Below are positions 10,013 to 62,700 of a stretch of 64,000 nt of DNA, one piece after another. This stretch comes from an uncultured virus (IMG/VR IMGVR_UViG_3300035181_001618) (lineage: Duplodnaviria; Heunggongvirae; Uroviricota; Caudoviricetes). Positions within the stretch are counted from its first letter, which is position 1; each line of letters opens with the position of its first letter. Location of the stretch: IMG/VR virus record IMGVR_UViG_3300035181_001618, positions 62,001 to 126,000 of that record; one strand, written 5' to 3'. The translations under genes were made by a program, and so were the position numbers. The notes under the pieces are model-generated. The model saw nothing but the letters and a program-made list of their open reading frames with translations, had not been told where the DNA came from and ran no database searches.

Positions 10013-11535
10013 TCCTCTTCGACCTCGATGTCCGACGGTGGCAAGTCGGCCGCCCGTTGGTTATCGTCATTCGGTACGAGCACAGGGATGCCTGCGATCT
10101 TCAACAGGTTGCGACCGATCAAAGCGTCATACTTCATGTCAGCACGAGAGGTGACTGAGAACTCAACCTGGTTGTAGCGGACACCCCGCAGGATGATGTC
10201 AAGCTTGATCAACGGCCGAGTTGACTTACCGTGAGCGTTCCGGATCTTGACATGACGGTCAACCGACACGCGGTAGGTGATGCCGTCGCGCTTGAACTTG
10301 ACCCAGCCGCCAGTTTCACCCACGTCTTCGGCGTGCAGTGAACAGAACGCCGCACCGGTGTCCACTCGTGCATGCATGCCTTGGTCCGCAAGCCGGACGA
10401 TGACCAGCTGCTCAGTGTCGCCAAGCGGTTGGTCACCGTTGACATTCGGGGTTACTTGCACCGGCGCGTCATTGTGCGGCACGTCGAGGGAACCCTCAAT
10501 GCCGTTAGGAACCGCTGGTTCGATCTCAGGAGCGATCTTCGGCTCAGAGACGGGAATACCGTCGTATATGCCGTCGACCACCGCCGGTTCGCCTGAGCCC
10601 GGGACGAACGGAGCATCATGCTTGCCTGACAGCTTAACCAAGCCCTTGATCACAGCCTCAGGCAGGTTCTTGTCCTCCCAGTTCTTCTGGATGGCTTCGA
10701 GGCCTGGCGAGCCGTTGACTTCGAGCACGATTAGCTGGCCATTGTGCTGGATATAGTCGATCGCGCAGAAGCGGGCGCCAAACAGCTCAACGATCTTGCG
10801 AGCGAGCGCCAGCTCCTCCTCGTTAGGCTCGTACTTCTCAGTCTCGGAGCCCAAGTGCGAGTTGGTGCGAAACTCGTCCTTCTCCTTCGGCTGACCACGA
10901 CGGTTAGCCGCCAGCAGGTCATCGCCGATCATGATGATGCGAAGGGACTCCTTGTGCTCGATGAACTCCTGCAGCATCACCTCGGAGCCGCTGTTGGCGA
11001 GGAACGCCTGAGCGACTGAGACGAGGGAGGACTTCGAGTCGACCTTCATAACGCCGATGCCGTGCGTGCCGCGCAGCGTCTTGATGATCATCGGGAACTT
11101 CAGCTGACCGTCCTCCTCAACCTGCTTCAAGGTGAGGTCGAGCATGTCAAGCGAGCCGATGACTGTGCTGTACGGTGTCTGGATTCCGGCGGAGTTCAAG
11201 GCGACCTGCGAACCTAGCTTGTCATTACACAGACCCATGGCTTCGGGCGTGTTGACCATGTACGCGCCGTCGGCCACAAGCCGGTTAAGCACGTTCAGCT
11301 TGTACATGATGTGGTGCTCGTTAAGGCGCGGGATGCATGCAAACGGCGGCTTCAGCTCGGCCAGCTTGTCGTCATCCACCTTGTACATGACCTTGGACTT
11401 ACCCGTGGTCTCGACGATGAAGGTGTGGCGAATGTCGATGATAGTGCATTCATAGCCTAATTTTTCAGCTTCAGCTTTTAGCTGAACAGGGACAAAGTTT
11501 TTAGGCTCCGCCGTAAGAAGGTAAATAGGTAGCAT
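10009..11535 (-). CDS. rimK: RimK-type ATP-grasp ligase fused to a RimB-like retropepsin protease
   Basis: NDKL, PMIIKTLRGTHGIGV, LQEFI, FRTNSHLG, LEVNGSPG; C-terminal ARVDTGA..SLHA...R..MKY..LIGRNLL. Confidence 0.88.
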   Translation of the reverse strand: MLPIYLLTAEPKNFVPVQLKAEAEKLGYECTIIDIRHTFIVETTGKSKVMYKVDDDKLAELKPPFACIPRLNEHHIMYKLNVLNRLVADGAYMVNTPEAMGLCNDKLGSQVALNSAGIQTPYSTVIGSLDMLDLTLKQVEEDGQLKFPMIIKTLRGTHGIGVMKVDSKSSLVSVAQAFLANSGSEVMLQEFIEHKESLRIIMIGDDLLAANRRGQPKEKDEFRTNSHLGSETEKYEPNEEELALARKIVELFGARFCAIDYIQHNGQLIVLEVNGSPGLEAIQKNWEDKNLPEAVIKGLVKLSGKHDAPFVPGSGEPAVVDGIYDGIPVSEPKIAPEIEPAVPNGIEGSLDVPHNDAPVQVTPNVNGDQPLGDTEQLVIVRLADQGMHARVDTGAAFCSLHAEDVGETGGWVKFKRDGITYRVSVDRHVKIRNAHGKSTRPLIKLDIILRGVRYNQVEFSVTSRADMKYDALIGRNLLKIAGIPVLVPNDDNQRAADLPPSDIEVEEE

Positions 11536-22128: not shown

Positions 22129-22178
22129 CCGAGTATTGTATTCTTGGGCGGCCTACTTAGGCATTTTGTAAATATGAG

Positions 22179-22529: not shown

Positions 22530-22894
22530 TGAAGCTACAAGCATTGTTTGAGAACGAGCAGCGCCGCATCCTGTTGACGCTCCAGCAGAACATCATTGAT
22601 AGCCTTGACGACGTGACTGTAAAAATTACTAGGCTTTCCAGCATCGAAGCTGGCGCTCTTAACGCAGCACGCCATCGTATCAACCCTGTGTTCTTCGATG
22701 CGAATGCGGCTGTGCTGGCAATTAGCAAGCCAGCCGTCTCCTCAGCCTATGTTATGCTTTGGCCGTCAGCGCAGCCTGATCGAATGCTGTGCATTCGCAC
22801 AGGTAACGGCGATGTTCAGTGGCTGGCCGCAATCTACAAGCAGGACTCGGTGCTTGAATGGGTCATAGCTTGTATGCAGCAGCGGCTGTCATGA
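22529..22894 (+). CDS. MKLxxLxE/LKLQQ family protein
   Basis: MKLQALFE...LLTLQQNIID. Confidence 0.65.
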   Translation: MKLQALFENEQRRILLTLQQNIIDSLDDVTVKITRLSSIEAGALNAARHRINPVFFDANAAVLAISKPAVSSAYVMLWPSAQPDRMLCIRTGNGDVQWLAAIYKQDSVLEWVIACMQQRLS

Positions 22895-23393
22895 CCTTGC
22901 GGGTATAAGGATGTGTGGCAGCGTTGACCTGCTGTACGCCTCCTTCACCTAGGTTGTAAGCGGCGATCCCCTTTGCCGCATTCTTGTTGACTCCCATCAT
23001 TAGCAGGTACTTGCTTGTGACGCTAGCGTTGAACCGGTCATCTAAGATCAGCCGGGCCTTCAGTTCTTCATCGCTGCGGGTGTCAAAGTCGTTCCAGAGG
23101 TCGGAGAAGCGCTTCATGACGGCTTTTGCGGCGCCGATTGAGACTTGCCCAACGCCATAGAAGGTGCTGCTACCCTGCTTAACAACACGGTGCTTGCTCT
23201 CTCCAAGCTTGCTCTCAACCTTTAGCACGCCGACGACGTACTTTGGCTCCTTATGACCGTCAGCGGTCGCGACTTGCATTGTGTACTCAGCGAGAGTTTG
23301 ATCAGCCACAAGCGTGGCTGCAGGGCACTCGACATTGTCTGCGTGAGCGGTAAGGGCGAAGATTAGAGCAAAGAAGCATAGAAGCTGTTTCAT
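22863..23393 (-). CDS. SLT-type lytic transglycosylase with signal peptide
   Basis: signal peptide ending AHA-D; VES, YGVGQV and AAYNLG motifs. Confidence 0.85.
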   Translation of the reverse strand: MKQLLCFFALIFALTAHADNVECPAATLVADQTLAEYTMQVATADGHKEPKYVVGVLKVESKLGESKHRVVKQGSSTFYGVGQVSIGAAKAVMKRFSDLWNDFDTRSDEELKARLILDDRFNASVTSKYLLMMGVNKNAAKGIAAYNLGEGGVQQVNAATHPYTRKVMTAAAAYKL

Positions 23394-23695
23394 GATGATG
23401 TCTCCATGGTCAGTTTGCTAAGACGCCAAAGATGACTCCGCCGTGAAGCGAAGAGCTTTGAAGATTAGCTGATGAGCCAAGCTACATGCAGCACGTGCCG
23501 CAACTTGGGAAGAATGACAGAGGGGTGGCGCCCTCTGATCTGCTATGCCGATCCGGACGCGGCGCGTACCTAGGATCGCTATGTGCACAAGCCGTGAGCC
23601 GGACACCCGTCAGGTGCCTGAATCCTCCGCTCGAGTTCGAGCTGTGGAGGCGGCTCACCAAGCTTGCGCTTGTTTGCAGCCCGAAGGCTGCGGAC
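23394..23695 (-). ncRNA. candidate structured RNA or long structured 5' leader
   Basis: TAAATA at 23699-23704 followed by consecutive stems including cUUCGg and GCAA tetraloops and a three-way junction; no credible ORF. Confidence 0.6.
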
Positions 23696-23701
23696 CTGTA
23701 T

Positions 23702-24193
23702 TTACAGGTGACTGGTCGAGTCAACGACGCCGGATGTCGTGTCCGTGAATGCGGAGCCGACAACGACGTTGCCTTCAGGCCGGAGGTCGGCGTCGAAGAG
23801 CGAGCCGCCACCTTGACCCATCAGGGAGTCGATGTGACCTGCAGCCTTCTTGGTCCGGGTCATCTGGTGGAAGTAATCGAGGGCGTTCTTACCGTTCGAC
23901 AGGCGCTCTTGGCTGAGCAGGTCCCACAGCTCGTACTTGTCGGCGTGGCCCGACATCAGCACCTTCTTCAGGCGGCCGCGGTCAACTTGGTCGATCAGGC
24001 CGATGTCGATGTACGACAGCGAGCCGTTCGGCCACTCCTTGATGACAGCGACTTCGCGGAATTGACCGCTGTCGTTCACGTCAACGTAGAAGACGTGCTT
24101 GAGGCGCGTCGGATGCATGATGATCCCGCCCTTGTTGGCGTTCGGATCCTTAGCCGGTTCGGCTGTCTTCGTAACTTGCTTGTCGGTTGCCAT
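23702..24193 (-). CDS. conserved jumbo-phage hypothetical protein
   Basis: 163-aa ORF with two TAAATA motifs upstream (24234, 24248). Confidence 0.7.
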   Translation of the reverse strand: MATDKQVTKTAEPAKDPNANKGGIIMHPTRLKHVFYVDVNDSGQFREVAVIKEWPNGSLSYIDIGLIDQVDRGRLKKVLMSGHADKYELWDLLSQERLSNGKNALDYFHQMTRTKKAAGHIDSLMGQGGGSLFDADLRPEGNVVVGSAFTDTTSGVVDSTSHL

Positions 24194-24306
24194 GGTGTTC
24201 CCGTGTGATATGTGATCGAGCTATGCTCGATTTTATTTACCGCCCAATATTTATGCAAACACCGTGAGGATGATGTTTACGACTCGAGTTTTGGTAAATA
24301 TCCTCT

Positions 24307-24437: not shown

Positions 24438-25463
24438 TTAGAATGCGAGAAGGCCGTCACCTTCAGGCTCAGCCGGCTTCTCGACGAGAACCGTGTGAGC
24501 CTTAGGCTTGTCACCCTTGAGGTAGCGTTGGTTGTTCATGAACATGTCGATGAATTTGTTGGCCTCTTCGGCCACCTTGTTCAGCTTGTACTTGCCCAAG
24601 AACCGCAAGAAGTGAAAGTGCGAGTAAGAGGCGAGAGCCGCTGGATCTGACTGCATGATGACGCCTTTTAACAGCTTCAGCCTGATGTCATCGGGCTGCT
24701 TCGTTAGGTCCATGAGAACCTCGTTGTGCTTGTAGAGGTCGCCGACACGGTGCTCGGTTAAGTTCTCGTCCTTCCACGTAGCGTTCATGAAGTTCAGCCG
24801 TGTGTAATCGTCGCTGTAAGCCTCACGGATCTTCTTCTCAAAGACGCGTGGATACGCTGACGGCACGTTGTCGCCGCTGTCTCCGCGAACGCACTTAAGG
24901 AAGAGCCAGTAGTCGATGTCGGGCTCGTAGTCCTTGTCGCCTGGCTGGTTGCGCTCTTTGCCGTTGTCAGGGTTGACAAGCTTGACATTCGGCAGCTTGG
25001 TGAGCTGTGTGAAGTCCTTGTCTCCTGACACGATCGTGATGCGGTTCTCGGGCGAAGCGTTGATCTGACAGTAGGCGGCGATTACGTCATCACCTTCCAT
25101 ATCCTGCACGCTGATGCAGCAGATAGAGGTGTGCTCCTTCATCGTCTCCTTGAAGGCGTCGATGAGCTTGTAGAAGTGGGCCATCTCGGGGTCGGGAATC
25201 CGATTGGCCTTGTACTGCCGCCGGATCATCGTATGCTCCGCCGTGTACTTCTTCCGCCAGTTGCCGCCACCTTCAAAGCTGAAGACCAAGAAGTCCGGCT
25301 TGAACTTCTTGTACCACTTGTAGATGCTCATAATAGCTATGTGCATAGACAAGCCAACTAAGTCGTCTATGCTGGCGCTATAATTAGCTGGACCACCTTG
25401 ATGTTTTTGCATCGCGGCGACCCTGAAGAGGATGTTTGAAACGTCAATGACTAATGAATGCAT
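24438..25463 (-). CDS. 5'-3' exonuclease / T4 RNase H-like flap nuclease
   Basis: VIDVSN, YKANR, EGDDVIA, SGDKDFTQL and GDSGDNVP motifs. Confidence 0.9.
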   Translation of the reverse strand: MHSLVIDVSNILFRVAAMQKHQGGPANYSASIDDLVGLSMHIAIMSIYKWYKKFKPDFLVFSFEGGGNWRKKYTAEHTMIRRQYKANRIPDPEMAHFYKLIDAFKETMKEHTSICCISVQDMEGDDVIAAYCQINASPENRITIVSGDKDFTQLTKLPNVKLVNPDNGKERNQPGDKDYEPDIDYWLFLKCVRGDSGDNVPSAYPRVFEKKIREAYSDDYTRLNFMNATWKDENLTEHRVGDLYKHNEVLMDLTKQPDDIRLKLLKGVIMQSDPAALASYSHFHFLRFLGKYKLNKVAEEANKFIDMFMNNQRYLKGDKPKAHTVLVEKPAEPEGDGLLAF

Positions 25464-26103
25464 AAAAACCCTACCGTACGTCTACATGCTTACACATAAG
25501 CAGACAGGTCAATTCTATATTGGTTACCGAGAAGCTAACATTTTGCCAGCCGATCAAGACCTGCCACTATACAAGTCATCAAAGTATGTTAGAGGTCTAG
25601 GATTTGAAAACTTTGACTTGGGTAATTATTGCTGAGTTTTGGGCAGCAACTGATGCATATGATTTTGAACAACAGCTCATTCTAGAGCACCGCCGTGACA
25701 AGCTGATCATCAATCGTCATGTCATATTCAACGGCAGCTTAAGGTTTATGCCTAAACGCGGCGGCAGGGTTTTTCAACTATAACACGACAAAGACTTTCT
25801 AATGCTCTCAAAGGCCGAACCTTCTCGGAGGAACATAAGAAAAACATTGGTGCATCTAGTTCTGGTAGACGGCATACATTTCAAACCCGGCTTGCTATTA
25901 GCGTAACTCAGCTCGGAAGGAAACGTGATCCCATCACCGATGAAACTAGGCAACGAATGACAATCAGCCGTCGAACAAGAATTGAAGTTCCTAAACGTGG
26001 AACCGAATGCATCGTCGACGGAGTACATTACATCAGCGTTTCAGCAGCAGCCAAAGCGTTAGGATGGTCAAGAAAACGAATCCGTGACCATCTGCATGCT
26101 TAG
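25447..26103 (+). pseudogene. frameshifted GIY-YIG-type homing endonuclease
   Basis: PYVY...FYIG; frameshift near 25619; later SEEHKKNI and IVDGVHYISVSAAAKALG segments in other frames. Confidence 0.75.
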
Positions 26104-27919: not shown

Positions 27920-27986
27920 ATGTGGATTATGTCGCGAAGATGTGCGAGCGGATTGATTGTATCTTATGCCTATCAGGGAGGCATAT

Positions 27987-34637: not shown

Positions 34638-34693
34638 GACATATTTATCATAGCGCTAACTGCTATATACATAATAACTTCTAACGCATACTT

Positions 34694-37674: not shown

Positions 37675-37730
37675 TGTTGTTGTTCCAAGGGTTTTGAGGT
37701 TAAGCGGCGGATGCCGTCTGGGATGGAAGT

Positions 37731-37770
37731 AAAAACGGCTCCGAAGGCGGGTTAAGCCTTAGGAGCCGTT
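37731..37770 (-). terminator. intrinsic terminator
   Basis: AACGGCTCC...GGAGCCGTT followed by TTT on the minus strand. Confidence 0.65.
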
Positions 37771-37794
37771 GAGGGAAATGACAGCAAAAGAGAA

Positions 37795-40477: not shown

Positions 40478-40836
40478 TCAGCTATTTATGCGGACCAGGA
40501 ATGTTTGCTTCATTGATGTATCGAAGCACGTCCTCTGGCGTAGTTGAGGTGTACTCGACCGCGTAATCCTTGTCAACGTCGTCGACGTGAGCCATGGGTG
40601 CACCTTTACTTGGTACATGTGCCCATAGTGCACAAAGATCAGCGCCCACAGAGGCTTATTGTTGACAGTCTTGAGCTTGACATCACCTGATGTCCGTGAA
40701 GAAGGCATCTTCTATACAAAGGATCATAGTAAGGAGATCGCTATTCACACATGTGATGCTGCGTTGGGACATGCAAAGGACATGTAGCGACAACTCAGTT
40801 TTGCACAGATTCCTCCGCAATCCTAAATAGCCTCAT

Positions 40837-43116: not shown

Positions 43117-43692
43117 ATGACCACCGTCAAGCACCCGCTAAGCGCAGGCATCCTGCACCCACTACAAGTCAATCGGTTTCGTGCTGTCTTCAAGACCCCC
43201 GAAGGTGAAGCATTGCCGTACGGTGACCCGTTGACCGCTCAGCTAGTTCGTACGTCTGAGTTTGGCCTCTACAAAGGCATTGCGGTGGTCATTGAAGAGG
43301 ACATCACCGGCCATGCGGGTCGTGCGGTGCAACAGCTTACCAAGCTGTCTAACTTCACGCTCGACATTGAGTACTTAGACGGCAATAACACAGTGATCAA
43401 GACCGCATCCTTCATCGGCTGTAAGGTTAGCAACACGCTGTATAGCGGCCTAGACTATGCAGGTGGGAAAAGCTCAGTTGGCGAGGTACTTCGCCTCTCT
43501 GTGCCGCGCTGGGAGGGTAAGAAGTTTGACGAGCTGGCAGCTGAGCATCCTACAGCTGCCACGCTGATCGCCTTTCTCAAGGGAGCACAGCTTGAAGTGA
43601 TCGCCGATCGTGACGGCAAGCGTGGCATCGCAGAGGTCACTTTGACTATCAACTACGGCGACTTGGCTGTCACTTGGGCCGATCTCGGCTAA
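43117..43692 (+). CDS. tail-tube (gp19)-like paralog
   Basis: GILHP...NRFR, IEYLDG and LDY motifs. Confidence 0.5.
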   Translation: MTTVKHPLSAGILHPLQVNRFRAVFKTPEGEALPYGDPLTAQLVRTSEFGLYKGIAVVIEEDITGHAGRAVQQLTKLSNFTLDIEYLDGNNTVIKTASFIGCKVSNTLYSGLDYAGGKSSVGEVLRLSVPRWEGKKFDELAAEHPTAATLIAFLKGAQLEVIADRDGKRGIAEVTLTINYGDLAVTWADLG

Positions 43693-43703
43693 ATATTGAC
43701 ATC

Positions 43704-45194: not shown

Positions 45195-45617
45195 CTATTT
45201 AGCTGAAAGCGGCTTCTTTGTACGATACCAGCCTAGGGTTCTGCCGCTGGCTTGAGCCGCCGCGATCATGGCGTCATTGGTGACATGCACGCCTGAGTAG
45301 AGCGCTGCCGCACCCTTGCGAATTGCTTGCTGCTCAACGAAGTGGATGAGCTGCTTGTAGATGCCTTGTTTGCGGTGCTCTTCAGCCACCGCAGAGAACA
45401 GCACCCACGCCGCACGCTTAGGAGGGTCATAGCTCCAGACCGACGCGCCGATCACCTGGTCACCCAACAGCGCATAGGCTACCAGAGAACCGTTCGTGAA
45501 CGGCAAGTCATAGTCTGCGTGGCCTGCCTTGACGAGAGCGAGGTACTCCTCGAGCACGAAGACGAAGGCCTTCGAATGCGCAAGCGAGTCCTCGCTGACA
45601 ACTTTAAGGAGCTGCAT
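45195..45617 (-). CDS. GNAT N-acyltransferase
   Basis: AVAEEHRKQGI and N..M motifs. Confidence 0.8.
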   Translation of the reverse strand: MQLLKVVSEDSLAHSKAFVFVLEEYLALVKAGHADYDLPFTNGSLVAYALLGDQVIGASVWSYDPPKRAAWVLFSAVAEEHRKQGIYKQLIHFVEQQAIRKGAAALYSGVHVTNDAMIAAAQASGRTLGWYRTKKPLSAK

Positions 45618-55220: not shown

Positions 55221-55272
55221 GTCATATTTATGAGAGCACTGGTCACTTGAGGGGTATTCTCAATGAAACTTG

Positions 55273-56363: not shown

Positions 56364-56372
56364 AGGAGCTAT

Positions 56373-56803
56373 TTAAGGTGCTACAGTCTTGTAGGGGTGG
56401 CTGGGAGCGAGCTCTGCAGGCCCCACTGCCAAGCAAGGTAGCCTTCAAGCTTCCTGCGTGCTACGTCGTTAAGGGCCGCGTTTAGAACATAGCCGCTTCG
56501 GCGTAATCCCCTAAAGCGCTCGCGCTAGATTCGTAACTGTTGCGTTGCTGTGACAGAGCGACCGTATCCTGACGAGTCTGAGATCAGCACAGATTGGAAA
56601 TTCAAGCTTGCTGTGTTAAACTTGAAATCGCTCGTGGTTAATGCGACATTGCCTATAACTGATTCAGGTGCGAGGGCATTAGGCCCAGGTCGTTGCCGTA
56701 TCTGCGCCGTTTGCGTGAAGCAATAGAAGCACTTGGCTATAGAACGGGTCTCCGTTCAGCGCTTGGCGCCCTAAAGCCGAAGAGAGCAGTGCTGTAAGAG
56801 CAT
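56373..56803 (-). pseudogene. decayed ConA/LamG-like tail-associated gene(s)
   Basis: fragments GDPFYSQVLLLLHANG, GNVALTTSDFKFNTASL, RKLEGYLAWQWGLQSSL and HPYKTVAP in different frames. Confidence 0.65.
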
Positions 56804-59742: not shown

Positions 59743-62700
59743 TTATCCTTCGACCACTACCGTGCGCACTTCGTCAAGCGTGATGAACGAGGTCTTGATG
59801 ATGTCTGCTAGCTCATATGAAGCCGACAGCGCATCTTCGAGCACCTCGAAGAACAGCTCATTGACGTTGCGCGTGTCCGCATAGTTCCAGAGGCTCGCCA
59901 TGAACTCCCGAATCGCGGTAGGTGTCGCTAAGTATGTATCCAGCATTGCGGAGTCATACCCAAAGAAGCTCACCGGTGACAGCTTGAACGAGCTGGTGAC
60001 CACGTCGTAGGTTACAACCTGCGTGTTAAGCAGGGCACCCTTGACGGTAGCAACAGCCGCGGCGCTGTCAGACAGCACTTGACCTTGCTTGAGGCCGATG
60101 CGCGACGTGGTGCCATTGCGCGAGTCGTACTCAGAGTACAACGCAAACGGCAGCATCTGGCCTGTAGCCGTTTGACCGCACATCGTGTCAACAAGCTTGT
60201 CCCAGAGATCCTTGGGGATTCGAGTTGGCTGGTTCCGACGAATGAGCTTCCACTCGGTGTGGGTCGGGCGCAAGGACATGTCGCGGTCATCGTCGCGCAT
60301 CGAGCCGTTCTCGGTGATCCGCAGCTTATACTGGTTGTCCTTCCGAACGAAGCGGGTCATGTTGACCACAGACAACAGCGCGTAACGGTTAGGGCGACCG
60401 TCAAGCTGGTTGAACCGCTTCATGACTTGAGGCACAGCGTAAGGACCTGGATGTTGAGCAAGTTGTTGAGCCGCCAGTTTAACGCTAAGCTTCTTACCTG
60501 CCGCAGCGGTCTCCTTGTTCTTGACCCAGTAGAAGTAGCTAGTCTTGCTGACACGGCCAAACTCGTTGCGTTCTTCAAGCTTTGAGTGCGGGGTGTCGAG
60601 CTTGTACTCGGTCAGCTTAGCAGGATCTACCGCGGTGCCTTCAAGCTGGAGCTTCAGCTCGTCACCTGTCGGCACCTTGAACGGCAGCTCGAACCGCAGC
60701 TTTGAGCCTTGGTCAATGTTCGACCGGCTAGGGTAGTACCCGTTAAGGCCCTTTGCTATCTGGTAGCCTCGCACTTGACGGACGCCGTTGATGTAAAATG
60801 CGAGACGCGCCGAGTCAGCGGCAGTCACGTTCAGGCTCAGGCTTTCAAGCACCTGCAAGTGCGTCTGTTCTCCCACGAAGTAGGTAGCTGTTGCGACCGT
60901 TGAGGTCAGACGCTTCCACGGGCTCCAGCGCTCGTCATAGGCTCGCACAGGCTGTGGGCTGTTTAGCTCGTCCTGAATGTCCGTCTTGATGTCATTGAGC
61001 TCAGTGCCAACGGCTGTGTAGTCGCCGACCATTGCGGCCCACGAGCCGAACGAATCGTCAAGGTCATCGGCTCCTAGGGTGTAGGTGGGCATGCTCCACG
61101 AGACCCAGCCGGTTGGGCCTGGGATTAGCGAGCCGTTAAGCGTTGTCACCTGCGGCTCGATGAGAACCCGAGCGGCAACTTGCTGACGAACAACGATGTC
61201 GTGAGCTGAATTGCCAAACTCAATGCCGACACGCGCAGCACGTTGCTCTTGCGTCAGCGTTCCTAAGCCGCCCCAGGCCTCGCTGTGACTGTACTTGGTC
61301 TTAGCCGTCAGCTTGATGCCGAGCAAGTCAAGGTTTAGCTCGACCAGCGTGGCTGACTTAGGCGGCGTGTCATCGACCAGCACGCGCTGAGTTTGACCGC
61401 TTGCAAACGTGACACGCACGTATGTTAGCGACCCAACCTGCTCATAGTCGATGACCACAGCGCCGTGAGGCAGAGAGGTTGAGGTCTCATAGATCTCAAA
61501 CTTGAAGTCCGTGAAGCTGGCTGTGGCGGCATATGTTGGCGAGCCAAGGGCGTTGGACGCTCCCGCAAGCTGGCTCACATCGCCGGTCAGCACTTCAATG
61601 CAGCCGTACGGCTTGAGCATCGTATTACGAGAGCCGTTGGTGTAGGTCATGCCGGCGATGCGCTCCAGCGCGCTAAACGCCGGCATCGCGCCGTCAAGAG
61701 CCAGCACGCTGTCTCCGAAGACTTCGAGCGTTGTGGTCTGCCGCTTCAGCGGAGCCTTAGGCGAAACCTGTGGGTTCTTTGAGTAGAGCCACACGACCGG
61801 GCGTTGATGCCAAGTGCGAGTCCTGCTAAGGTAGTTCTTGACCGCTAGCTCGCCTGTGCCTGTGTAAGACAGGGGTGGCACGTCGGACTCGATCCACTCA
61901 AACACGTCAATGCTCGCCCAGTCAGCAAGCGAACCCCACTGTGTCAGCCGGTCATTGTGGCTTGGGTAGAGCGCCACGTCGGAGTAGTTCATCCAGCCAG
62001 CGTTGGCGGTGTTCCACCAGACCTTGCCTACCTGCTCTCGACCCCAAGTACGAGAGCCGTCGGCTGTCAACGCCTTGTACTTGAGAGAGGTGACATTGTA
62101 GCGAGCAGGGTCATGACCTGCGGCGTAATCAACGGTTGCGTATGCCTGTGGGCTGTGAACGCCGCGAGCCGGGTCCCACCAGATGACATTGTTGTTGATC
62201 GGCGTGTCACGGCCGCCGTCATCACGATACAGCTGGCTCGGTGAGAATCTTGCTAGCGGAGGACCATAGGCGATGATCAGCAGCGGCCTGTTGAACAGCG
62301 CCGTGTCGGTGATCACTAGCTGGCCAGAGTTCACGCGATTGAACTTAGCGGTGCTATACTCAGGTGGGTTAGTGCCTGTGACATAATCGCCCGTTTCGCG
62401 GTAGACCTTCGAGCCGCTCTTCATGTAGGACGTGATGTCCAAGACCGGGGTCTGGTACACGTTTGCGCCGCTCGTTACGCCGATGTCTACGATCTCAAAT
62501 GCGTCAGCCAGCACCTCTCGGCCGTCAGCATCGCGCACAGTTAGCAGCTCAGAGCCGGTGACCTGCACCTGCATGGTTGCAACGATTTGCGCCTTCAGGT
62601 AGCTGATGGAGCCCAAGTCGCTAAAACTGTTCCAACGATCCTCATCGTCAGGCTTAATGATGATGCAGCCACGCGGATCGAGCAGGTCCATGTTAACAAT

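Follow-up and report, generated by a model that had tools for sequence, protein, structure and literature searches.

What fills the gap between two minus-strand genes of an uncultured virus of the class Caudoviricetes is the question raised by this locus. The window, that is, the whole stretch of DNA analysed, is 64,000 nt long and corresponds to positions 62,001 to 126,000 of the 133,943-bp IMG/VR record IMGVR_UViG_3300035181_001618 (CheckV completeness 37%). The gap of 308 nt lies between a gene for a 163-residue protein (p163) and a gene for a protein resembling lytic transglycosylases (SLT-like, after the Pfam family SLT). An earlier note on this DNA, made by a model from the sequence alone, had proposed that a novel non-coding RNA (ncRNA) or a cis-regulatory leader follows a late promoter here and ensures tight translational timing of a secreted enzyme. 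A stable, strand-specific structure that matches no Rfam family and is explained by no conserved open reading frame (ORF) was borne out, whereas the translational timing was not. We give about an even chance to the explanation that we favour, namely that the gap is structured non-coding mRNA, both an intercistronic spacer and a 5′ leader rather than a separate RNA gene, and constitutes a degenerate and expanded terminator-promoter junction. Readings more exciting than such mRNA architecture were not supported. The features needed at the outset are as follows.

23702–24193, minus strand: p163, upstream gene, 163 aa, function unknown, taken from the ORF list and kept across the jumbo-phage clade
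23394–23704, minus strand: region under study, 311 nt, i.e. the 308-nt gap between p163 and the SLT-like gene together with the p163 stop codon
22863–23393, minus strand: SLT-like gene, 176 aa, start codon ATG at 23391–23393

Fold stability of the gap

Folding of the whole region as the sense strand gave a minimum free energy (MFE) of −133.6 kcal/mol (z = −4.71), which was matched by 0 of 100 shuffled sequences, whereas the antisense strand reached −119.9 kcal/mol (z = −1.79, 5 of 100 shuffles as good). The GC-corrected MFE residual of −2.65 SD (standard deviations) was below that of all 205 tiled 311-nt segments of the same strand, by a narrow margin (lowest tile −2.56); the raw MFE was lower than the region's in five of these tiles. 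Energy density amounted to −0.43 kcal/mol/nt, compared to −0.38 kcal/mol/nt or weaker in 15 other ORF-free gaps, both strands of which were folded. The gap has a real, strand-specific and unusually stable RNA-type structure, and it is the most stably folded gap of the window.

The asymmetry between strands bears on the idea that the gap works as DNA, as a palindromic protein-binding cluster, a replication origin or a recombination site located beside replication genes. Many 6-bp palindromes are indeed present (AAGCTT, CTCGAG, CCTAGG, CACGTG, TCCGGA, GGCGCC and CCATGG), and genes for an exonuclease, a primase and a helicase adjoin. However, the better fold of the gene strand points to RNA with G-U pairs and not to symmetric DNA sites. 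In addition, there are no iterons in the gap beyond two short two-copy repeats and no AT-rich unwinding stretch, and the cumulative GC skew turns elsewhere, near 10–18 kb. We consider a DNA-level element highly improbable.

As a separate observation, a 120-nt gap at 37675–37794 is the sole other gap of the window with a comparable z-score (−5.6 on the minus and −3.7 on the plus strand, 25 shuffles each).

Hairpins and ribosome-binding site

All of the hairpins described in the earlier note were located on the minus strand at the coordinates it gave. The limits of hairpins and sub-domains were picked after folding, so that the individual z-scores listed here are inflated.

23676–23691, minus strand: hairpin H1, GCAGCC-UUCG-GGCUGC (−10.6 kcal/mol, z = −4.44)
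23659–23672, minus strand: GCAA hairpin, CAAGC-GCAA-GCUUG
23594–23658, minus strand: three-way junction, GUGAGCCG/CGGCUCAC closing two hairpins (−36.2 kcal/mol, z = −4.57)
23583–23672, minus strand: Y-shaped domain, 90 nt (−52.3 kcal/mol, z = −5.81; MFE structure 56% of the ensemble)
23549–23578, minus strand: CGAUCC/GGAUCG hairpin with an inner GC-rich stem (z = −1.89, weak alone; 7 of 200 shuffles as good)
23518–23537, minus strand: hairpin CAGAGGG-CGCCAC-CCCUCUG followed by UCAUUCUUCC (z = −3.51), terminator-like, with no clean U run
23477–23508, minus strand: long hairpin CCAAG/CUUGG, CCAAGUUGCGGCA...UGUAGCUUGG (z = −2.45; 2 of 200 shuffles as good)
23417–23469, minus strand: extended leader hairpin, overlooked in the earlier note (−16.7 kcal/mol, z = −3.40)
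23401–23405, minus strand: Shine-Dalgarno (SD) sequence GGAGA, 7 nt before ATG 23391–23393

H1 begins 10 nt past the p163 stop codon and 7 nt past a TAAATA box; it consists of six pairs and has no T in the 8 nt that follow, and so lacks a U tract. The Y-shaped domain is made of a closing stem of 17 bp, interrupted by a 2-nt bulge, and two hairpins on top, with the three-way junction at 23594–23658 as its core. Neither the MFE nor the centroid fold contains the GCAA hairpin; in its place a longer helix, GCGCAAGCU/GGCUUGUGC, prolongs the stem that closes the three-way junction, so that the GCAA hairpin competes with the outer half of the Y-domain stem. Direct GCTATG repeats (23542–23547 and 23578–23583) flank the CGAUCC/GGAUCG hairpin. 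The leader hairpin at 23417–23469 has outer helices GCUAA/UUAGC and UCAAAG/CUUUGG and an inner hairpin CUUCGCU-UCAC-GGCGGAG (23436–23453), after which comes UCAUCUUUGG. A loose terminator scan passed the hairpins at 23518–23537 and 23436–23453, with tails TCATTCTTCC and TCATCTTTGG; the scan counted 6 such sites in 3.6 kb, where 3.7 were expected.

The GGAGA sequence lies within a mini-ORF of five codons, AUG GAG ACA UCA UCA UGA (23391–23408, minus strand), the stop codon of which shares bases with the SLT start (AUGA). This mini-ORF is probably untranslated, because no SD sequence lies upstream of it.

Searches for RNA families and relatives of the gap

A search of positions 22800–24300 against Rfam with cmscan (E ≤ 10) returned six weak matches, all far below the gathering threshold and none within 23394–23704. 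At the gathering threshold the whole window gave 0 matches, and ARAGORN predicted 0 tRNA and 0 tmRNA genes. The Infernal/Rfam comparison therefore agrees with the novelty of the structure as put forward earlier, in that no family was matched.

The 311-nt sequence is known only from this record and, letter for letter, from one other IMG/VR contig. It had no blastn match among phage records, matched only itself in its own 133,943-bp record, where it is single-copy, and retrieved three identical copies only from 86 related loci (E 0.1). Four DNA metagenome sequencing runs from four studies contain the stretch, all of them possible sources, with 0 differences in the gap. The remaining contigs from these runs match the conserved p163 core only, and hence provide no population variants of the gap.

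A covariance model (R2) was built on the Y-domain. No further copy of the domain was found with it in 79 related loci, the 134-kb record, four related phage records or the Ralstonia jumbo phage RsoM2USA. An exact two-part pattern of the domain gave 0 matches in bacterial genomes, and a looser stem pattern retrieved 25 loci from viral contigs; scored with R2, the identical contig reached 116 bits and the others 21.2 bits at most.

These results bear on the alternative that the Y-domain, with or without the later hairpins, is a stand-alone ncRNA, be it a processed RNA, a small RNA derived from a 3′ untranslated region, a ribozyme or a protein-binding RNA. The fold of the domain is well defined (the energy, z-score and ensemble share are listed above), loops of UUCG and GNRA type are present, G-U pairs confer strand specificity, and a terminator-like hairpin follows after about 45 nt. 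Set against this are the want of any Rfam family even at E 10 and of any second copy in the sequences searched, the absence from the gap of a promoter of its own besides TAAATA and of a clean U-tract terminator, and the inflation of z-scores by limits that were set after folding. A stand-alone RNA appears unlikely to us. A bolder version, in which the Y-domain and the surrounding hairpins form a new structured phage RNA (processed, or a riboregulator binding a protein or ligand) that times a secreted enzyme at the head of a replication operon, with the GCAA hairpin and the closing stem as the two states of a switch, is in our view a long shot.

The TAAATA box at the start of the gap

T4-type late promoters are TATAAATA boxes read by a gp55-like sigma factor. 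The box that the earlier note had taken as a late promoter has the following position.

23699–23704, minus strand: TAAATA box, T4-type late-promoter-like, putative promoter

The TAA stop codon of p163 supplies the first three bases of this box, which is centred in a 7-nt inverted repeat, ACCTGTA/TACAGGT (23694–23709). TAAATA occurs 25 times in the window versus 6.7 ± 2.5 expected (3.7-fold enrichment). The remark made earlier that most other TAAATA sites closely precede a start codon was accurate, as 19 of the 24 others have the start of an ORF of 60 aa or more within the next 40 nt. An ATAAATA box has been predicted as a late-type promoter in the related jumbo phages CBB and GAP32 (PMC5259590), and T4 late start sites lie about one helical turn past the TATA box (PMC2988020). 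Because TAAATA is enriched and near ORF starts, and because ATAAATA is predicted to be late in CBB and GAP32, the box at 23699–23704 is a plausible late promoter. It is the sole TAAATA of the gap, marks the 5′ end of the gap, 305 nt ahead of the SLT ATG, and is an outlier among the TAAATA sites in this regard. A consensus sigma-70 promoter scan produced no minus-strand match inside the gap.

Several further observations concern boxes elsewhere in the window. In about ten cases a TAAATA box precedes by only 4–8 nt the ATG or GTG of an ORF of 60 aa or more and no SD sequence intervenes, for instance at 2479–2484, 34642–34647, 40483–40488, 45196–45201, 55225–55230 and 56370–56375 on the minus strand and at 11522–11527, 22169–22174, 40824–40829 and 43690–43695 on the plus strand. 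Two of the genes behind these boxes encode homing endonucleases (phrog_655). Provided that the boxes are of the T4 late type, this spacing suggests messages with little or no leader. The region upstream of p163 itself (24194–24260, minus strand) contains a pair of TAAATA boxes, 40 and 54 nt before the p163 start, a sigma-70-like TTTGCA-N18-TAAAAT and, directly after the proximal TAAATA box, a 7-bp hairpin AUCGAGC-AUA-GCUCGAU. Hairpins also follow the TAAATA boxes at 27984 and 53725.

The same junction in related jumbo phages

The family-B DNA polymerase of this virus has its nearest match in RsoM2USA (42% identity) and its next ones in Xanthomonas, Sinorhizobium, Agrobacterium and CBB-type jumbo phages. 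Relatives of p163 were found at 8 viral and 75 metagenome loci, the nearest after the identical contig showing only 39–57% p163 identity, and p163 had no match in Pfam, PHROG or PDB. The gene order exonuclease, p163, SLT, primase and helicase is kept at about 80 loci of related jumbo phages, and a spacer of 118–661 nt separates p163 and the SLT-like gene in 39 of 39 related loci with both genes (34 distinct spacers). The spacers of the relatives have no sequence or structure in common with that of the window.

In 22 of the 34 spacers the stop codon is soon followed by a hairpin whose stem has 9 bp or more and whose tail is rich in T (at least four). An exact TATAAT 30–140 nt before the SLT start was present in 19 of the 34 (3.0 expected), and the extended motif TGnTAnAAT in 12 (0.57 expected). 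The relatives' leader between the −10 box and the gene measures 60–110 nt. Different genes may occupy the slot: RsoM2USA has an AAA_5 ATPase and a 635-aa ORF there, and unrelated small ORFs are found in L006, L014, L024, L034/L041/L042, L058, L063 and L066. Across the clade, this junction separates transcription units and offers a slot in which genes are exchanged, and H1 of the window is the positional counterpart of the relatives' intrinsic terminator. A term search of the RsoM2USA paper (PMC8504454) gave 0 mentions of promoter, terminator or transglycosylase.

In most relatives the SLT-like gene stands behind a terminator and a sigma-70-type box and heads the primase-helicase cluster, which makes early or middle expression look likelier than that of a late lysis enzyme. 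This arrangement does not suit the late, timed enzyme imagined in the earlier note.

In 11 of the 34 spacers (e.g. L033, L047, L055 and L084) a TAAATA lies no more than 25 nt past the p163 stop, ahead of the terminator. A late-type box just before a strong intrinsic terminator is an odd layout, for which we have no explanation.

Coding content of the gap

Given the swappable contents of the slot, the gap could be a fossil, the remains of a gene or cassette that had earlier entered this plastic position, with hairpins that are incidental or were secondarily kept. The differing genes inserted in the relatives' slot, the gene-like GC content of the gap and the presence of homing endonuclease genes in the window all speak for such an origin. 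However, no credible coding match was obtained for the frames of the gap. In tblastx the best match to the 86 loci had an E-value of 0.34, and the best non-self match in the whole 134-kb record (E 0.043) contains stops and lies in a non-coding frame. The three sense-strand frames matched 0 Pfam families at E 10. Three frames gave nothing at E 1 in word-indexed searches, and tblastn with three frames gave no match in 50,697 phage records. HMMER with the longest frame (23421–23609) against 1.84 billion proteins produced two repeat-protein artefacts only (one ankyrin-repeat, one tandem-repeat). Conversely, the best of 22 protein queries from the relatives' gaps reached E 0.002 against the 311-nt database. 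The Atlas recognition score was 1229, a value usual for sequence that is not protein, and one would not expect a decayed gene to fold with z −4.7 on just one of its strands. No conserved ORF that would explain the region was detected, in line with the RNA proposed earlier, and a fossil origin strikes us as distinctly unlikely.

The SLT-like protein and the question of translational timing

The protein encoded downstream matches Pfam SLT (PF01464) with an E-value of 0.0085 and 16.1 bits, below the cut-off of 21.3; two of seven members match at E ≤ 1, and there is no PHROGs match. An AlphaFold2 (AF2) model based on 29 homologues had a pLDDT of 88.4. Foldseek ranks 1–9 for this model were MltC, Slt70, Slt and MltE, with probabilities of 0.99–1.00 and TM scores of 0.42–0.58, at E-values of 6e-3 to 3e-2, none at or below 1e-3. 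Residue E60 is invariant in 29 of 29 sequences, and the protein has ES, GxxQ and AYNxG motifs, which we take to be those of SLT. The predicted fold is of the SLT/goose-lysozyme type, with weak statistics. The earlier SLT assignment is hence favoured by the predicted fold and the invariant glutamate, while the Pfam score falls short of the gathering cut-off. The signal peptide that was also claimed is consistent with a predicted signal-peptide-like N-terminus, MKQLLCFFALIFALTAHA/DN, with a cleavage-type motif AHA/DN. A linker of about 29 residues from the hydrophobic N-terminus to the catalytic domain, found in 6 of 6 aligned relatives, is missing from the window protein.

The gap could be imagined as a cis-regulatory leader controlling when a secreted, holin-independent lytic enzyme is translated, in the manner of the T4 leaders in front of e, soc, 49 and I-TevI. 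T4 lysozyme is under such control (PMC3014915), and the signal-peptide-like N-terminus of the window protein would suit this role. In eight related loci we also identified a shared leader that covers the SD sequence: its anti-SD strand, GAUGAUCUC..AAG, is paired to CUUAAGGGAGUC, and the two enclose a variable hairpin.

L012, 3116–3184: SD-covering leader
L014, 3445–3525: SD-covering leader
L018, 1862–1928: SD-covering leader
L024, 3246–3299: SD-covering leader
L030, 777–842: SD-covering leader
L031, 3010–3071: SD-covering leader
L043, 475–545: SD-covering leader
L006, 3913–3973: SD-covering leader

The stem sequence of the leader hairpin differs from phage to phage. RNAalifold found no consensus structure on a MAFFT alignment of the eight leaders. 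When the leaders were aligned to a covariance model made of them (R1, with a hand-supplied structure), 80.5% of cells were paired versus 69.4% in shuffles and 32–55% in slid controls, nine of 16 pairs were changed on both sides, and the covariation score of 0.406 (versus 0.249) was reached in 0 of 500 shuffles; the structure had been derived from the same eight sequences, which biases this pairing test in its favour. The predicted SD-covering pairing has moderate support in these relatives. A second copy of the leader's 5′ motif was seen in L043, near position 1281.

The window offers little of the same kind. An nhmmer search with the relatives' leader gave no match in the window at E 10. With R1 (cmsearch, filters off, 23300–23800) the best sense-strand match had 1.9 bits and an E-value of 3.4 and fell in coding sequence, and a search of 331 kb recovered only the eight training sequences. 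The window's GGAGA had a mean unpaired probability of 0.33–0.38; among 25 other genes of the window the median was 0.25, and 68% of them were at or below 0.38. The site is as accessible as theirs, and the tight translational timing supposed earlier is not borne out by an SD sequence that is no more occluded than usual. Furthermore, the defining trick of gene e, a late box in the hairpin arm beside the SD sequence, is absent, as the TAAATA lies 305 nt upstream, and the relatives' gene follows sigma-70-type boxes in a replication cluster. Weighing these points, we find a timing leader improbable.

Proposed origin of the spacer

We return to the spacer-leader reading favoured at the outset. In T4-type phages, promoter-early stem-loop (PeSL) cassettes comprise a stop codon, an AT-rich tract, a sigma-70 promoter, a terminator stem-loop and an SD sequence and are concentrated in plastic regions (Arbiol et al. 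2010, PMC2839356). A junction cassette of this general sort would have degenerated in the window lineage, its CUUCGG-type hairpin losing the U tract and no sigma-70 box remaining, and would have grown by the accumulation of about 200 nt of lineage-specific GC-rich hairpins. We infer that the gap is transcribed, where its transcript starts and what its hairpins do: transcripts coming from p163, or begun at TAAATA some 6–8 nt before H1, would cross the spacer and continue into the SLT-like gene. Exonucleases and RNase E may be held up by the stable hairpins, which would then be segmental mRNA stabilisers, and the two hairpins with U-rich tails may be weak attenuators that reduce read-through. 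SLT translation would then proceed from an ordinary GGAGA site that is not specially hidden.

A number of points weigh against this explanation. No RNA runs containing the sequence were found, and no helix has covariation support, because the element is without a homologue. PeSL-like descent is argued from position only, because the window spacer lacks both a canonical terminator and a sigma-70 box; neither TATAAT, TAnAAT nor TGnTAnAAT occurs at −140 to −30. The hairpin at 23417–23469 looked by eye like a diverged form of the relatives' leader and was rejected after it failed with both nhmmer and R1. The GC content of the gap (0.58) is coding-like and exceeds that of many of the other folded ORF-free gaps, which range from 0.44 to 0.61. 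Finally, the Y-domain (z −5.8, one dominant fold) is far more ordered than a stabiliser requires, and could have a specific function.

Should the explanation hold, the locus would be another case of a phage gene junction turned into long folded RNA, and would show a terminator-promoter cassette decaying into a read-through leader, which is useful for giant-phage annotation and unsurprising. The by-products, namely the possible near-leaderless TAAATA messages and the SD-covering SLT leader of eight relatives, are perhaps more valuable.

Neighbouring genes

24438–25463, minus strand: 5′-3′ exonuclease
25432–26103, plus strand: chain of short ORFs of lower GC content between the exonuclease gene and the next gene

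Beyond the SLT-like gene there are two small plus-strand ORFs, then a primase and then a DnaB-type helicase. The chain at 25432–26103 starts with YVYMLTHKQTGQFYIGY, which we take to be a GIY-YIG-like motif, and the chain is possibly a decayed homing endonuclease.

Comparison with known systems

Structured RNA in a comparable place is familiar from other phages. The late leader of lambda (6S RNA, from PR′ to tR′) is a structured RNA of about 100–200 nt between the late promoter and the lysis and late genes, and the RNase III processing hairpins of T7 are long imperfect stems between cistrons; the gap resembles both in layout only. Tuerk and colleagues are said to have described CUUCGG hairpins in T4 intercistronic regions in 1988. 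H1 is likewise a C(UUCG)G hairpin directly past a stop codon, and the terminators of L006, L058 and L066 have the same loop, with the difference that H1 is one of at least seven hairpins.

In T4, early transcripts of the lysozyme gene e hide the ribosome binding site in their leader, and soc, 49 and I-TevI behave likewise (PMC3014915). The window shares with these genes a structured leader before the gene of a cell-wall-degrading enzyme in a phage with TATAAATA-type late boxes; the SD-covering helix has its likeness in the eight related loci and not in the window. The T4 late promoter lies within the 5′ arm of the SD-covering hairpin, which leaves late transcripts without this helix, whereas the only TAAATA of the window is 305 nt upstream and its SD sequence is not unusually paired.

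The PeSLs (PMC2839356) were defined in RB49 and phi1, outside this clade, and are repeated motifs with one hairpin, while the window spacer is single-copy, 308 nt long and has at least seven hairpins, with neither a sigma-70 box nor a U-tract terminator. The same parts, that is, a stop codon, a terminator or attenuator stem-loop, a promoter and an SD sequence at a gene-swapping junction, are nevertheless seen in the relatives' spacers, and the window spacer itself has a stable stem-loop, H1, directly after the upstream stop.

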